Assembly (NCBI GenBank): GCA_944393485.1
Contig: CALYAJ010000002.1
Span: 1-56,732, forward strand
Origin: an uncultured Clostridia bacterium
GTDB lineage: Bacteria; Bacillota; Clostridia; TANB77; CAG-508
Direction: 5' to 3'
Length of the DNA stretch: 56,732 nt
Position 1 is the first letter of the stretch. Each line of letters starts with the position of its first letter. A model generated the notes under the pieces. It saw only the letters and a program-made list of their open reading frames with translations, ran no database searches and was not told where the DNA came from. Both the position numbers and the translations under genes were made by a program. Below are positions 15,574 through 23,183 of the stretch, in pieces.

Positions 15574-15780
15574 CTAAAATAAATTTTCCTTCAAACATGC
15601 TATCTCGAGAAAATATTTTGTAAATTTTGTATTCATATCAAATTGTTTAATATTATCAAGCTCTTTAATATCTATCCATTCTAACATTCTTTCTTCTAAC
15701 TCTTGTAAATTACCATAAAAGTTTCCTTCTACATATATAAATATTATTCCTTCTGTACTATCTTTCCAATATAATATCAT
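15574..15780 (-). pseudogene. Orphan C-terminal gene fragment (possibly NUDIX-like tail)
   Basis: 68-aa ORF with no SD. The frame is open upstream into repeat U4 (..SEWQVFKNYIKEIFDK-M..), suggesting the N-terminus was replaced. Confidence 0.3.
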
Positions 15781-17316: not shown

Positions 17317-17928
17317 TTATTTTTTTAAATCAATTTCTTTTTCATATTTTTCATCTAATATTTTATAATTACTAATATTAGCTAATCTAAATAATCTTAT
17401 CTCGTTTCTAAGTTCGCAAAAAGCTGCAACATACCAATCATTAATATAATCAAATAATTCTGCTGGGTGGATAATTCTTTCTGTTTTTCCTGAATTTACC
17501 GAAAAGTATTTTATTTTTACTTTATTTTTTCCGTTTATTGCTTTTCTAAAATCTTTATATATTTCTGTAAATTCTGGATAAATTCTTTCTATTTTTTTAC
17601 TATTTTTCTTATTCCCATTATTTATATATGCTTTATATATTTTTTCTACTATTTCTTTTTCATAATTATCTTTAGCAATATTTTTTAAATAATATATTTC
17701 TTCATCTGTCAAACCTATATCTATATTTGTTTTTATATCCTCTAAAATATATCCTCCTTTAATTCCTTGCACACCTTTTATATAAATTCCTGCCTGTTCT
17801 AATTCTTGTTTATATTGTCTTATCATTCTTTCTGAAACTTCTAGTTCTTTTGCTAATTCATTTATAGTATGCTTTTTACCATCTTCTAATATTTTTACCA
17901 GATTAAGCATATTTGCAACTTTGCTCAT
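17317..17928 (-). CDS. HTH + WYL domain transcriptional regulator
   Basis: N-terminal HTH INELAKELEVSERMIRQYKQELEQAG and a C-terminal WYL-type domain ..IHPAELFDYINDWYVAAFCELRNEIRLFRLANI. SD AAAGGAG. Confidence 0.7.
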   Translation of the reverse strand: MSKVANMLNLVKILEDGKKHTINELAKELEVSERMIRQYKQELEQAGIYIKGVQGIKGGYILEDIKTNIDIGLTDEEIYYLKNIAKDNYEKEIVEKIYKAYINNGNKKNSKKIERIYPEFTEIYKDFRKAINGKNKVKIKYFSVNSGKTERIIHPAELFDYINDWYVAAFCELRNEIRLFRLANISNYKILDEKYEKEIDLKK

Positions 17929-17950
17929 AGTTTACTCCTTTATTTTTGGG

Positions 17951-17994
17951 AAAGAGTGTCCATTTGTTTAATTTTTAAAAAATGAACACTCTTT
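17951..17994. promoter_or_regulatory. Inverted 15-mer pair (putative WYL-regulator operator, autoregulatory)
   Basis: aaagagtgtccattt (17951-17965) and the reverse complement of 17980-17994, aaagagtgttcattt, separated by 14 nt. Lies between the predicted promoter and the RBS of the WYL gene. Confidence 0.45.
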
Positions 17995-18006
17995 TTTGAA
18001 TTATAT

Positions 18007-18035
18007 TTTATATATAAGTTCCTATTACTACGCAA
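18007..18035 (-). promoter_or_regulatory. Sigma-A-type promoter for the WYL regulator gene
   Basis: Minus strand reads TTGCGT (18030-18035), 17 nt, TATAAA (18007-18012). Confidence 0.4.
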
Positions 18036-18053
18036 TCATTTCGATTTTACTTG

Positions 18054-21000
18054 TTATTCTAAATTCTTAATAAATTCTTCTTCTGTAATTTCTTTATTCT
18101 CTAATAAATATTTTATAACATTATCCATCCTCTTTTTATTTTTCTTAATTATCTCTACTGAATCATTAAATGCATCATTTAAAATTTGGTTCACTTCTTT
18201 TTGAATATCTTTTTCCATTTCATTCTCTGGATTTTTTATTTGTCCAAATCCTAGATTTGACATTCCATAAAATTTTACCATATTTTCAGCATTGAATGTT
18301 GCATTTTCTAAGTCTGAAGTATTTCCATTTGAAAATTCACCAAAATAAACTTGTTCTGCTGCCATTCCTGCCATTTCCACTTTTATATCATTTAATATAT
18401 CAGTTCTAGTTTTTATTGGTTTATCTGGATCTGTACTATGTAATACATATCCTAATGTTCCATCTCCTTCTGGATTTACTGTAATTCTCTTTATTCCTGG
18501 CTTTTTAAACAAAACTAATCTTACTAAAGCATGTCCAACTTCGTGTGTAGCCACTCTTTTTCTTATCTCATTTGTTATTGTGTTTGGATCTGTCATATTT
18601 GAACCATTAAATACTACTTCTATCATTTCTTTAATAGTTGGTATATCTTGTTCTCTAATTTCTTTTATATTGTCTTTGTAATTTTTTGCGTGTTTTATTA
18701 ATATTTCTTGTAATACTTTATCTACAAATCTTCCATTTCCAATATTTTCCACATTGCAAAAATATTTCATTATTTTTGCAATACTTTCTTTTGATTTATC
18801 ATTTATTTGTAATTCGCATTTATCCATCTTTTTGTATAAAATATCTGCTAATTCATATTCATTATAATCTGGGAATTCAAATGTGTATCCAATTCTTGAG
18901 GCTATTCCTGGATTACTATCTATAAAATCCTGCATTCCTTTTCTATAACCTGCAAATATTACTACAAATTCTCCTTTATGGTCTTCCATTGCTTTTAATA
19001 ATGTTTCTACAGCTTCTAATCCAAATGAATCTTTACCTTCTGTTAAGCTATAAGCTTCATCTACAAACAATACGCCTCCCATTGCTTTTTCTATAACTTT
19101 AGCAGTTTTTGGAGCTGTCTGTCCAACATATTGACCAATTAGATCTTTCTTTGAAACTTCTACTAATTTATTTTCTTTTACCACTCCTAAGTCAAATAAT
19201 AATTTTGCCATAATTCTTGCAATCGTAGTTTTTCCTGTTCCAGAATTTCCTACAAATACCATATTCATATTATTTTCTACTAAATTAATACCAGCAGTTC
19301 TTGCCTCATTCTGAAATATTACATAATCCTCAAATTCTTTAATTTTGTCTTTTAAATCTTTCATTCCAATTATATCATCTAATAACTTTAATGATTCACC
19401 TTTAACATTATTACCTGTATCTGTTAGCTCTTCTATTGTTGGAATATCTTTTTTATAAATTACATCTATTTCATCATCATTTATAGCATGATTCATTATA
19501 GCTTCTTGAATTAATTTATCAACAAATCTACCATTTCCAAATGCTTTTCTTTTTGAGAAATATTCACATATGCCTTCTACTACTTCTTTTACACCATCTT
19601 CACATTTAAATCCCATATTTTTTATCTTTAACATAAATATATCTACTAATTCATTTGGTGTATAATCTGGAAAATCAAATGTGTAACCAATCCTTGAGGC
19701 TATCCCTGGATTACTATCTATAAATGACTTCATTTCGTCTTTATATCCAGCAAATATTACTACAAATTCTCCTTTATGATCTTCCATAGCTTTTACAAGT
19801 GTTGCTACAGCTTCTAGTCCGAAATGTATTTCCTCCTTCTGTGCTTCCTTGTGTTAGGCTATATGCTTCATCTATAAATAATACTCCTCCCATTGCTTTG
19901 CTTATTACTTCTGCTGTCTTTGGTGCAGTTTGTCCAATATATTGAGCTATTAAATCTTTATTTTCAACCTCTATTAATTTATTTTCTTTTATTATTCCAA
20001 GATCAAATAACATCTTAGCCATAATTCTGGCAATAGTAGTTTTTCCTGTTCCTGGATTTCCTGTAAATATCATATGCATATTAGCATTTTTTAATTTTAA
20101 ACCATTAGCTTTTGCTTTTACTTGAAATAATATATATTTTTCAAATTCTTTCACTTTTTTCTTTAATGATTCTAAGCCGATTATATTACTTAAACTTTCT
20201 TCTACTGTTTCCTTTTTATACATACTTTCTGGAAATATTATTTTATTTTTAGCATTGCTATAATCAGCTAAGTATGTAGCTAATTCTCTATTAGAAAATG
20301 GAATAAATTTTTGATTTAAACTTACATAATCTTTAAATTCCTTTTTATATTTTTCTTCATGCGTTCTTAAATCATCTACTAAATCTGATTTTATTTTTGA
20401 AATATATAATTCGTAAATTTCATCTAGTGATAAATCTTTTACTTTGTAAATATAATTTTGATATATATATCTTAATTTTGGATCAATTGCTAATAATTCT
20501 TCAATTTCTTTTTCTGTTGCCATTAAAATAATATAATTGTCTGAGTCCATCTTAGTAAGTAAATCTAACACATGTTTAAATTGCTTTTCTCTAAGCTCTT
20601 CTGTAGAATTTAAAGCTTTTCTATAATCTGTTATAAATTCTGTTATACCATTTATAACATATAGTCGTTTTTCTTCTAATTCAGTATATTTTATTGCTTC
20701 TTCTACATGATAAGGAACTCCATTTTTATCATTTTTATCCAAATCGTAACTTGCTTTATATGTATTATATGATGCCAAATTTTGCATAGATAATCTTATA
20801 ATATCTTCTGAATTTAATTTGCCTTTTTTAAAAAGTAACTCAGCAATTTTATTTATTAATTTGTTTTTTGTTTCTAGGTCATTTCCCTCTATTATACAAT
20901 GAAAATTAGCTTGTGATTCATTTGATATTATTTCACCAATTGATTTTAAATTATCCACCTTTTCCTTTAATTCATCGAAATTATCTAATATATCATTTTT

Positions 21001-21945
21001 AGAATTATCCAGCTCTCCTAATTTTGCTTTTTTATTTTCCTTAATAAGCTTATCTACTTCTTTTTTGTGTTCTTTATAATATTTTCTATCAGCTTCTATT
21101 TGCTCAAACTTACCTTCTCTTTGTAAATAAAATATATAACCAGCAATTATAAACGGACATTCAGAAAGTCTACAATTATATGTATTACAATAATTAAACT
21201 CGGTATTAGTACTTCTTTCTATATAAGTATAGTTTTCAAAATTATGAGAAGGAGCTGTTAATTTTGTTACATCATTATTAAACTTTGTATATTCTTTACA
21301 AGAGTATAATGATTTTATTTCTACACTATTATTTTCATTTAAAACATTTGATACCCATATACAATTATTATCAACTATTCTCTTACAAAATTGATATGTA
21401 TCTTCAGACACATTTTTTAAGCCATCTTTTACATTCCATATAAAATCAAATTTATTATTTGTATTATTTTTCTTTCTATATTCTTCTCTTTCTTTTAGCT
21501 TGTTGTTTAATTCTCCTTTTCCATATAAATATAGAACATATGCTGCTAATACTTTAGGACATTTATCATAATTACAACCTCTACATACACTATTTATTGT
21601 ATCAGTTTTACATATTATTTCCCATTCGTCTTTATCCTCTTTAATGTACTGATTTATATTATTTTTTAGATTTTCTAATAATTCTTCAGAAGTTATTTTG
21701 TTTTCGCAAAAGCTTATAAGATTTGACTTTATAATTAATTGTGGATAATATTCTTCTGTTTCTGCTTTATAAGATAATTCAATTTTTCCTTCTTTTATTA
21801 ATCTAAATGCAATCTCTAGTGCAGTATCAGAAACAAATTTTAAGCCTGATGGGTTTTCTAACTCGAAGTCATATTTTTCTACTATACTATTAAAGTTTTC
21901 TGGCATACTTAATAATTTATCTTCCTTGTTTTTTTCCATATTCAT
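18054..21945 (-). pseudogene. SWIM-like x2 / SpoVK-type AAA+ x3 (one degenerate) / FtsH-M41 metalloprotease fusion, one frameshift
   Basis: ORF 19774..21945 ends ..EGGNTF-RTRSC.. and ORF 18054..19787 starts MEDHKGEF. Removing one base in sense TTTCGGA (19818-19824) gives ..NTFGLEAVATLVKAMEDHKGEFVVIFAGY.., parallel to the second module ..DSFGLEAVETLLKAMEDHKGEFVVIFAGY. Walker A is GNPGTGKTT and GNSGTGKTT, Walker B is (I/V)DEAYSL, and the C-terminal zinc site is THEVGHALV. No TM segment. Confidence 0.7.
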
Positions 21946-22100
21946 TATGTATGATATATTTTATAATTAAATATGTCATACTCTCCTTTCTATGATTTTT
22001 TCTTTTGAATACTTTGTTTTTATCACTTTAATTTTTTAAGTAAAATAAGTAAACCTTAAGTCAATAGTGATTGTAATATTTTACCTTATTAGATCCTTTT

Positions 22101-22129
22101 CTTATATAAATAGTGTCCATTTGGTGCAA
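22101..22129 (-). promoter_or_regulatory. Sigma-A-type promoter candidate for the AAA-protease gene
   Basis: Minus strand reads TTGCAC (22124-22129), 17 nt, TATAAG (22101-22106). The spacer is occupied by one operator half-site. Confidence 0.4.
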
Positions 22130-22195
22130 AGCGACTTTTATACAATATGAAAGTATAATTTTCCTATTGTATAATGAACAAAGTGGACACTATTT
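22108..22195. promoter_or_regulatory. Second inverted pair of the 15-mer (putative WYL operator)
   Basis: aaatagtgtccattt (22108-22122) and the reverse complement of 22181-22195, aaatagtgtccactt. Same core AGTGTCCAYTT as at 17951-17994. Confidence 0.45.
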
Positions 22196-22204
22196 TAATA
22201 TAAT

Positions 22205-22341
22205 AGGAAAGTTCTCCGAACTTCTCTATTATATTAATAAATTTCACACAAAATTGCACGGCAATTTTGGCGACGAACAAAGACGGGGCATGTAAGTTAT
22301 TTAAAAGGTCATAAAACTTTAATCATGCCCCTTTTGTTCTT
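22205..22341 (-). repeat. 138-bp inverted repeat, right copy (IR-R)
   Basis: Reverse complement aligns with 12114-12251. On the minus strand it reads as a terminator hairpin for the MazG-like gene (22285-22331), then the palindrome caaaattgc-cgt-gcaattttg (22249-22269), then aatataat, pointing at the AAA-protease gene. Confidence 0.9.
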
Positions 22342-23183
22342 TATTCCTTAAACATATTTTTTCTATTATGTTTTTTGCTTTCAATTTCTTCTTTTAAATA
22401 TGTACATTCTTCTAAATCAATTCCATAAGTATTTGCTAATGAACATGTATAATATAAAACATCTGCTAATGACTCTTCTATAGTTCCTTTTATTTTGTCG
22501 TTTTTCATTCTTTTGTCATCTCCTACAGTGCTTGATAAATCACCTAATTTCTCCATTAATTTTAACATATATTTAGTTGGAGCAGATTTTCTTACTTCAA
22601 TTTTAGCGATACTTGCTTGTAGCTTTTTCATAGTTAACTCTTCTGTTTTAGGTGTCTCTATTGTAGGAATTTTAGCAATTACTGGCTCTGGCTTTGGTTT
22701 TTCCTTTTTCACACCATATATAGGGCCTAAATCTTCATCAGCTAATATTGATTTAAAATGTTCTTTAAACTCATCTATCTTCTCTTCTAATAATTCTTGG
22801 TTTGCAATATATTCAATACTTTCTTCAGGTACACTCATAAAGCTCTGTGCAACATAGAATATGTTTAATACATCTATTATATTTTGTATGAATTTTTTCT
22901 TTTTGTAATTTATAAATCTTTTACTGCTTAATACTACTTCACTTGTAGCATCTAAATATTCCTCTAATGTATATGTCTCTAAACAATATTTGCCCCATAC
23001 TTTAAGTTTTACAGTATTATTTTCACTTTCTTCAAAAATTGGAAATAATACAATATTTCTTCCATTTTCTTTTATGCATCTAGGAAAAAATATATAATAT
23101 TCTTTTTTTCCTCTATTTTCATTTTTCCAATTTTGTAAAATTCCTTCTAATAATGCTACTCCATTTTCTACTTCTTCTTCCAT
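22341..23183 (-). CDS. Protein with C-terminal MazG-type nucleotide pyrophosphohydrolase domain
   Basis: The last ~90 aa (..LMEKLGDLSS..EESLADVLYYTCSLANTYGIDLEE..) fit a MazG helix pair. The N-terminal 180 aa are unassigned. Confidence 0.5.
   Translation of the reverse strand: MEEEVENGVALLEGILQNWKNENRGKKEYYIFFPRCIKENGRNIVLFPIFEESENNTVKLKVWGKYCLETYTLEEYLDATSEVVLSSKRFINYKKKKFIQNIIDVLNIFYVAQSFMSVPEESIEYIANQELLEEKIDEFKEHFKSILADEDLGPIYGVKKEKPKPEPVIAKIPTIETPKTEELTMKKLQASIAKIEVRKSAPTKYMLKLMEKLGDLSSTVGDDKRMKNDKIKGTIEESLADVLYYTCSLANTYGIDLEECTYLKEEIESKKHNRKNMFKE

Follow-up and report, generated by a model that had tools for sequence, protein, structure and literature searches.

The stretch of DNA analysed here (the window) comprises 56,732 nucleotides of an uncultured Clostridia bacterium, positions 1 to 56,732 of contig CALYAJ010000002.1 (GCA_944393485.1), with a G+C content of 26%. 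On its minus strand lie two overlapping open reading frames (ORFs), 19774..21945 (ORF1, 723 amino acids (aa)) and 18054..19787 (ORF2, 577 aa), which together make up a very large protease gene, hereafter the giant. Directly downstream is a gene for a transcription regulator (17317..17928, minus strand, 203 aa), and upstream lies one for a tandem MazG-like protein (22341..23183, minus strand, 280 aa). A single extra C at position 19821 separates the two ORFs (minus-strand context AAT ACA TTT C GGA CTA GAA), and its deletion leaves one continuous ORF of 1,296 aa. The two ORFs are halves of one gene: the junction of the joined ORF, GGNTF/GLEAVATLVKAMEDHKGEF, reproduces the same stretch in the second AAA module and in the in-frame orthologues. 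An earlier sequence-only reading of the window had likewise proposed a single cytosolic protein of about 1,290 aa followed by an HTH+WYL regulator; the joined protein indeed has no hydrophobic segment (maximum Kyte-Doolittle mean over 19 residues, 1.0), and the downstream protein matches HTH_11 and WYL in Pfam.

The frame 0 part of the giant (19822..21945, minus strand) comprises codons 1-708, the last being UUU (Phe), and codes for two Cys4 modules (residues ~14-290), then a coiled linker, a degenerate AAA-like domain (~340-580) and the first half of AAA+ module 1. The +1 frame part (18054..19820, minus strand; 589 codons) supplies the rest of AAA+ module 1, AAA+ module 2, the lids and an M41 protease domain. 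Without a shift, frame 0 continues for 15 codons to a stop at 19774-19776, giving the 723-aa product, and the earliest start codon in the +1 frame is the ATG at 19785-19787, 13 codons past the shift site.

Searches with the joined protein gave a coherent domain order. Pfam identified AAA twice (625-735 and ~890-1000), AAA_lid_6 and Peptidase_M41 (1122-1291; 107.8 bits against a PF01434 cutoff of 29.9). NCBIfam ranked spore_V_K first (E 4.9e-140), followed by CbbX and EccA, and its FtsH model covered only the M41 part (1092-1290). A sequence search of the PDB returned CbbX (3e-50), EccA1 and the protease domains of FtsH (2e-24). Both AAA+ modules carry Walker A (GNPGTGKT at 629, GNSGTGKT at 899), Walker B (residues 688 and 958) and an intact QY[IV]G pore loop (QYIG of module 1 at 668), and the HEVGH zinc motif stands at residue 1134. 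Residues ~340-580 have no Walker A, and their structure model is an alpha/beta AAA-like domain; the model of ORF1 as a whole (pLDDT 80.6) aligns with double-ring AAA unfoldases. The domain calls of the sequence-only reading were thus borne out for the degenerate module, for the two intact SpoVK/CbbX-type modules and for a membrane-free FtsH-type protease domain. Judged by its motifs, the architecture is cytosolic and catalytically intact.

The protease half resembles FtsH, YME1 and AFG3L2 in its HExGH, AAE and SDL(E)xAT motifs, with a match to the FtsH structure at E 2e-24, and presumably shares their logic of an ATP-driven unfoldase feeding a zinc-protease chamber. Unlike FtsH, the giant has no transmembrane helices, its ATPase modules are of the SpoVK/CbbX type rather than the classic clade (two to four in the family, plus a degenerate one), and its N-terminus is a novel Cys-rich region; against the full-length FtsH model TIGR01241 it scores 114 bits, far below the cutoff of 600. 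Each active module, by contrast, matches the SpoVK, CbbX and EccA models end to end, with 45-49% identity to the CbbX crystal structure, a summed score over two modules of 465 bits for TIGR02881 (cutoff 422.95), and the clade motifs GxxGTGKT, VLF[IV]DE and QY[IV]G twice each. Those proteins, however, are single-module chaperones or remodellers of ~300-570 aa without a protease. SpoVK proper (a single module, ~320 aa, no protease) was rejected as an identity for the giant on account of its 1,296 aa, its tandem modules and its M41 fusion. The literature search returned no description of this AAA+/M41 architecture, and the earlier statement that no described system with it could be named holds for the libraries and literature searched. 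On the strength of its domains, we lean towards viewing the giant as a soluble, self-compartmentalising AAA+/M41 protease of an undescribed family.

An alignment of 13-21 homologues resolved the giant N-terminus into two repeated modules of ~150 aa, each with four invariant or near-invariant cysteines (C80/C121/C124/C129 and C216/C253/C258/C263). The two Cys-rich strings picked out in the sequence-only reading are present, but their assignment as SWIM-like was rejected: neither module matched SWIM (PF04434) or any other Pfam family at E<=10, the signatures contain four Cys and no His, and the fold had no match in PDB or BFVD. The simplest explanation of the "missing His" is a Cys4 site, the fourth ligand appearing to be a Cys. 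A confident model of residues 14-335 (pLDDT 90.4, pTM 0.87) found no significant fold match in PDB (best E 1.4) or BFVD (best E 0.3), in a Foldseek search whose 322-aa query could miss a domain as small as SWIM. A profile of the N-terminus, run against 1.84 billion proteins, retrieved no more than 83 cluster representatives, virtually all of them the same giants or their fragments, so that the module occurs in essentially no other architecture in that set. In placing Cys4 modules ahead of AAA+ rings the giant recalls the zinc N-domains of ClpX and the arrangement of ClpA, ClpC and Cdc48, and its ORF1 model superposes on double rings; unlike ClpX-type N-domains, its modules have no likeness in sequence or fold to any PDB or BFVD entry. 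The model therefore indicates that the Zn(Cys4) modules form an N-terminal fold without a detectable structural relative.

A frame break shared by three lineages

The break between the two halves falls in a candidate +1 frameshift cassette (19818..19839, minus strand), GAA GGA GGA AAU ACA UUU C GGA. It begins with an AGGAGG element resembling a Shine-Dalgarno (SD) sequence (19832-19837); after a spacer of 7 nt come UUU in the P site (19822-19824), the rare CGG in the A site (19819-19821) and GGA as the codon of the +1 frame (19818-19820), with C19821 as the extra base. The sequence-only reading had treated the break as damage needing repair, a view that comparison with relatives overturned: the break has been fixed in each of three diverged lineages, where selection is purifying, and appears programmed.

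The same extra base is present in three species-level lineages (the window with P0007; L002/L003 with P0011; L001/L015/L080/L082 with P0018), in which the 22-nt cassette is identical while the surrounding synonymous sites differ. About 30 distinct ORF1 variants, on dozens of contigs from ENA, Logan, NCBI and JGI, all stop just after GGNTF/R; a metagenome scan for further shift-site variants yielded 4 contigs only and no new lineage. Variants from the sister species (the P0003 cluster, L004 and L090) are all in frame, reading GAT GGT GGA AAC TCT TTC GGA, and the AGGAGG is absent from the in-frame orthologue. As in-frame L090 is the outgroup, with 70% amino-acid identity upstream of the break versus 81-88% among the three frameshift lineages, the insertion arose once.

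The frameshift lineages have diverged to a synonymous distance (dS) of 0.66-0.72. Between the window and L001, dS was 0.66-0.67 and the ratio of non-synonymous to synonymous distance (dN/dS) was 0.15 upstream and 0.12 downstream of the break, and the 588 downstream codons contained no indel or stop; the flanking genes gave the same dS (0.66-0.92; 1.27 for the WYL gene) and dN/dS of 0.06-0.33. Together, the shared break, this divergence, the low dN/dS and the lack of indels and stops exclude both a recent pseudogene and a sequencing artefact. Sequencing or assembly error was also rejected: the break recurs in dozens of independent assemblies drawn from four sources, and a frameshifted copy shares its contig with an intact 1,746-aa paralogue, which makes an assembly artefact unlikely. 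Transcriptional slippage and phase variation were rejected as well, the site having a T3 run only and no within-species polymorphism.

A pseudogene reading, in which the 1-bp insertion left a decaying gene whose joined protein is no longer made, would agree with the splitting of the giant by gene callers and with its dispensability in the genus, many relatives having no giant. We nevertheless consider a pseudogene highly improbable. The frameshift is common to lineages separated by dS 0.66, the downstream dN/dS is as low as or below that of the WYL, HAD and MazG genes, and the ~30 variants are fixed for the break without secondary lesions. Preservation through gene conversion by an intact paralogue is unsupported, there being none in the window and the one in L002 being only ~75% identical in DNA.

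We mildly favour instead the prediction that the giant is read through by a +1 ribosomal frameshift, whether programmed or compensatory. In this clade synthesis of the full-length protein would depend on a +1 shift of the ribosome at UUU_CGG_A: with the A site waiting at the rare CGG, peptidyl-tRNA-Phe would move its pairing from UUU to UUC, GGA CUA GAA and onwards would then be read as the conserved GLEAVATL, and the upstream AAGGAGG may lengthen the pause. The junction peptide of the transframe product would be GGNTFGLEAVATLVK (also given as AMGGVLFIDEAYSLTQGSTEGGNTFGLEAVATLVK), and ribosomes that do not shift would make the 723-aa N-terminal product. CGG accounts for 7 of the 14,953 codons in window ORFs (0.47 per 1000), placing it among the five rarest sense codons, and an in-frame UUU_CGG occurs in the window only at this site. 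Neither the window nor the close loci examined yielded any tRNA gene in a search for tRNA-Arg(CCG).

Substitutions around the overlap bear on whether the junction itself is translated. Among the frameshift lineages, all six in the overlap are non-synonymous in frame 0, versus four synonymous and two conservative changes in frame +1. The +1 frame has no start codon from its last stop, 11 codons before GGA, to the ATG 13 codons after. Those 13 codons between shift site and ATG (GLEAVATLVKA) carry four substitutions, three synonymous and one Val-to-Ile in frame +1, all four non-synonymous in frame 0. Although the sample is small, codons ahead of the ATG thus evolve as +1-frame coding sequence, which speaks more for translation through the junction than for reinitiation at the ATG.

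The same data weigh on a stable split gene, in which ORF1 (723 aa) and ORF2 (577 aa, from ATG 19787 by termination-reinitiation) would reassemble as an AAA+ protease without recoding. In the window and in L002 the end of ORF1, stop included, overlaps the start of ORF2 by 14 nt, which would allow translational coupling; both halves would be expected to show purifying selection just the same; and some distant family members are naturally two genes, the N-terminal region and the AAA-M41 part being adjacent in L058 (633-4803) and in L060 (7977-11305), where the genes overlap by 4 nt. Those splits lie at a domain boundary, however, whereas the break in the giant interrupts the AAA core itself, past Walker B and ahead of the sensor-1 strand. 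There is no SD ahead of the ORF2 ATG, the ORF1 stop of L001 lies 47 nt past the ATG so that the coupling geometry is not kept, and the +1-frame evolution of codons that have no start ahead of them speaks against reinitiation. We judge this arrangement unlikely.

The frameshift has precedents of two kinds. Like prfB, which encodes RF2 (PMC3711429), the giant is a bacterial chromosomal gene, and its proposed +1 shift would involve U-rich P-site re-pairing, a slow A site and perhaps an upstream SD-like element; unlike prfB, its A site holds a rare sense codon rather than a stop, its SD-like element is spaced at 7 nt rather than 3 nt, and its site has no evident autoregulatory logic and is confined to one small clade of one gene family. 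Influenza A PA-X and the amalgaviruses use UUU_CGN, an established motif for +1 frameshifting, and the core of the giant site is identical, tRNA-Phe slipping from UUU to UUC before a rare CGN Arg codon (PMC3498833, PMC6356274). In glass-sponge mitochondria, +1 shifts occur at a rare CGG_A created, as here, by a base inserted 5' of GGA (PMC5009743). These UUU_CGN and CGG_A precedents, unlike the giant site, belong to eukaryotic-virus or mitochondrial translation, and no bacterial cellular UUU_CGN example was found in the literature searched.

The giant family and the house-cleaning cluster

A genome scan identified 383 stretches encoding relatives of the giant, of which 79 loci were kept for comparison. 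Their hosts are mostly uncultured gut Clostridia, with some Coriobacteriia and Bacilli. Family members have one to four Walker-A modules and most keep HExGH; H1134, E1135 and H1138 are invariant in alignment A1. Among the homologues L001-L079, whose lengths range over ~980-2,000 aa, the number of intact AAA+ modules likewise runs from 1 to 4, which suggests repeated module duplication and loss through recombination between near-identical tandem modules.

To look for conserved partners we clustered, all against all, the 970 ORFs flanking the 79 loci; no partner gene was conserved beyond the closest clade. Neighbours of distant homologues, inspected by eye from their translations, include housekeeping-type genes such as GroEL-like and ClpP-like ORFs. 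The giant in the window adjoins a fab operon and does not lie in a mobile island. In L001 and L085 the flanks are 94% identical, and what separates the two loci is a clean indel of 3.9 kb corresponding exactly to the giant gene, with a 10-nt microhomology, TAAAAATGGA, at its borders. This makes the giant an accessory insertion, or a frequently lost gene, inside a conserved nucleotide house-cleaning cluster.

The regulator, by contrast, belongs to that cluster. The sequence-only reading had paired WYL gene and giant as one module, yet a WYL neighbour occurs at only 4 of the 79 giant loci (L001, L002, L003 and L015, one narrow clade; tblastn and phmmer), and phmmer with the window WYL protein found no weak WYL neighbours at the others. 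The WYL protein has >1,800 homologues, and in L084-L089 the same syntenic block has a WYL gene of ~70% identity and no giant, the block order being fabF-accB-fabZ-accC-FAD protein-NUDIX-229aa-MazG-WYL-HAD-Ham1-NUDIX-HAD-GNAT/HD. These giant-less syntenic loci and the clean indel identify WYL as the resident regulator of the older FAD-NUDIX-229aa-MazG-WYL-HAD-Ham1 cluster. Of the points that the earlier reading proposed to check in related genomes, intact alleles (L090 is in frame) and variable presence of the giant were found, and the pair co-occurred only in the narrow clade.

Among the neighbours, the MazG-like gene is the best supported as functionally linked, since its N-domain is fused to the N-terminus of giant homologues (the paralogue in L002/L003, and in L009 and L005-L007). 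The giant directly adjoins the MazG-like gene in all four lineages, on either side. The paralogue (L002 1481-6721, L003 7422-12662) is a second intact copy of 1,746 aa with three Walker-A modules and the fused MazG-like N-domain, and takes the place of the NUDIX and 229-aa genes directly upstream of the MazG gene and the frameshifted copy.

Other parts of the cluster have also changed. In the window, a 68-aa ORF (15574-15780, minus strand) is the 3' remnant of a NUDIX gene whose 5' half is missing there; L002, L001 and L084-L090 have the complete gene (150 aa) at the corresponding position. The unannotated 229-aa gene in the NUDIX-MazG gap is split into overlapping ORFs of 70 and 178 aa in some strains (L084 5396-6086, L088 5349-6039) and is whole in others; it is another frame break in the same cluster. 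In the giant-less loci L084-L089, strains differ in what genes they have at ~14.2-14.6 kb, ~7 kb downstream of WYL, with GmrSD_N in some and an AAA_11/AAA_12 helicase with DUF2726 in others. This spot looks like a defence-type variable site, separate from the position of the giant.

Palindromes, leader and a possible defence role

The 15-mer AAAKAGTGTYCAYTT has exactly four matches in the window (17951, 17980, 22108 and 22181) where 0 are expected, and these form two inverted pairs as the sequence-only reading had described. Pair 1 (17951..17994; arms 17951-17965 and 17980-17994, 14 nt apart) lies between the giant stop and the WYL ribosome-binding site and is a candidate WYL operator, or an RNA hairpin. 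Pair 2 (22103..22200; arms 22108-22122 and 22181-22195, 58 nt apart) supplies the outer arms of a nested palindrome of 98 nt that lies 163 nt ahead of the annotated giant start. Both pairs are kept at the same places in L002/L003; giant-less loci do not have them, and neither do L001/L015, whose genes leave no gaps. The gap before WYL in L090 contains a related palindrome, AAAGAGTGTCACCTT...AAAGGGACACTCTTA, whose outer core is unchanged and whose inner positions differ symmetrically.

A stem shared by two sites points to a common reader, most simply the WYL protein. Judging from the palindromes, WYL probably acts on its own gene and, secondarily in the window lineage, on the relocated giant. 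It is also conceivable, though we rate it clearly below an even chance, that the 15-mer palindromes are RNA hairpins or a lineage-specific repeat (processing or stability sites, or scars of giant relocation) rather than WYL operators. As RNA the two pairs give strong hairpins (z -5.5 and -7.2), the 395-nt leader upstream of the giant contains four consecutive palindromes, the 58-nt separation and nested inner palindrome of pair 2 are unusual for a simple dimer operator, and the pairs bracket the giant exactly in the lineage where it has moved and are missing from L001/L015 and wherever there is no giant. Independent hairpins, however, need no common stem unless one factor reads both, in the sense direction no U-run comes after either hairpin, and the symmetric changes in both arms of the L090 palindrome are as in an autoregulatory operator.

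Further leader hairpins stand directly after the MazG-like stop, at ~22270-22334 (GC-rich) and 22243-22268 in a fold with z -5.5, with one more at 22195-22237. An Rfam search of the window found no RNA elements. Hexamer pairs of the sigma-70 type were no commoner than in shuffled sequence (38 found, 45.4 expected), so that the promoter calls of the sequence-only reading are indistinguishable from chance.

A 20-codon upstream ORF (uORF) in another frame, MTYLIIKYIIHNEYGKKQGR followed by a stop (21917..21979, minus strand), overlaps the annotated ATG of the giant at 21945, and the sole SD ahead of the giant (GAAAGGAGAG, 21974-21990) belongs to this uORF, the annotated ATG having none. The next in-frame ATG is Met14 (21906), 10 nt after the uORF stop, and the family-conserved region starts there (MPENFN). 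This suggests termination-reinitiation or leader-peptide control of the giant; conservation of the uORF says little because the region is identical in L002.

We also weighed the proposal of the sequence-only reading that the locus is a candidate defence or stress module, which as a full defence model would be a WYL-guarded anti-phage or abortive-infection system whose repressor frees the protease on infection to destroy phage or host proteins. WYL regulators control phage defence and sense single-stranded DNA (PMC9122601, PMC11662680), as well as controlling DNA-damage responses (PMC10853764, PMC11804915, PMC10693628). Like BrxR/CapW and DriD/PafBC/SiwR, the window regulator combines an HTH with a WYL ligand-sensing domain, adjoins genes that it may regulate and has palindromic candidate operators nearby. 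The giant is accessory and patchy, with a paralogue gained in L002, shared palindromes flank it in the window lineage, and ATPase-plus-protease defence systems exist in the form of Iet, to whose IetA the locus has a PADLOC match (5.8e-15).

Several results nonetheless make a defence role of this kind improbable. The WYL regulator is a rare neighbour of the giant (75 of the 79 loci have none) and is kept with its house-cleaning partners where the giant is absent. Its WYL domain occupies residues 123-189 of 203 and there is no WCX extension, unlike the BrxR-type chains of ~291-299 aa with WYL at ~122-200; in sequence it is nearer to PafBC, its best solved relative, than to BrxR. PADLOC 2.0 on the locus returned generic AAA matches only (IetA and TRIP13), the giant scored 50 bits against the NCBIfam IteA cutoff of 510, again generic AAA similarity, no neighbour recurs across the family, those of distant homologues include housekeeping-type genes, and the locus stands beside the fab operon rather than in a mobile island. 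With no family-wide neighbour and only generic AAA similarity, a defence role has no specific support. By analogy, the MazG, Ham1, NUDIX and HAD partners would fit a DNA-damage or nucleotide-stress regulon at least as well.

What the giant may mean

By analogy with FtsH and double-ring unfoldases, the giant protein is probably a hexamer. Its two N-terminal Zn(Cys4) modules would select substrates or partners, and the pseudo-AAA ring and two SpoVK/CbbX-type rings, with their conserved pore-loop Tyr, would thread the substrate into the M41 zinc-protease chamber. At its boldest, our proposal is that a genuine programmed +1 frameshift of the virus-type UUU_CGN kind operates in a non-mobile chromosomal gene and sets the ratio of a 723-aa sensor-only product to the 1,296-aa protease, possibly through tRNA-Arg(CCG) supply, and that the protease, in a functional connection with nucleotide pyrophosphatases of the MazG type, founds a new class of soluble multi-ring AAA+/M41 enzymes with an unseen Zn(Cys4) recognition fold. 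We put this forward tentatively, as an idea with slightly less than an even prospect of being right.

A number of observations weigh against our main reading of the locus as a frameshifted gene for a soluble AAA+/M41 protease. The SD-like element lies 7 nt from the P-site codon rather than at the stimulatory 3 nt of prfB, and its AGGAGG may merely reflect preferred Glu-Gly-Gly codons; similar motifs occur about once per 3.5 kb inside window ORFs. No stable RNA structure is predicted near the shift site (z -0.13). Nucleotide identity is 95% over 60 nt at the site versus 84% overall, but such a stretch is not unique in the gene. The frame-specific substitution test comprises six events only, and CGG must be decodable since it is used six other times in the window. 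A split AAA+ protein of two polypeptides is a further, if minor, contender. The palindromes are missing from the tightly packed L001 and L015 and binding by WYL is only predicted, and no conserved neighbour among the 970 ORFs indicates a substrate or role. We infer the frameshift, its efficiency and the transframe product from the sequence, and likewise the physiological role of the protease; hexameric threading is projected purely from homology.

To our knowledge, very few well-supported programmed +1 frameshifts are known in bacterial genes outside prfB, mobile elements and phages. If the reading proposed here is true, a sense-codon UUU_CGG case under cross-species selection would bring the influenza/amalgavirus-type mechanism to bacterial ribosomes, and the site, as a compact 22-nt cassette, is testable. 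The locus also holds a lesson for annotation, as gene callers and pseudogene filters split or drop the giant gene, and a caution for defence mining, in that a WYL neighbour can be a bystander from an older cluster. What is new is a predicted membrane-free FtsH-type protease, present mainly in uncultured gut Clostridia and driven by two to four SpoVK/CbbX-type rings, together with a putative frameshift kept under selection at a canonical UUU_CGN site which, if confirmed, would be a rare +1 case in a bacterial cellular gene.

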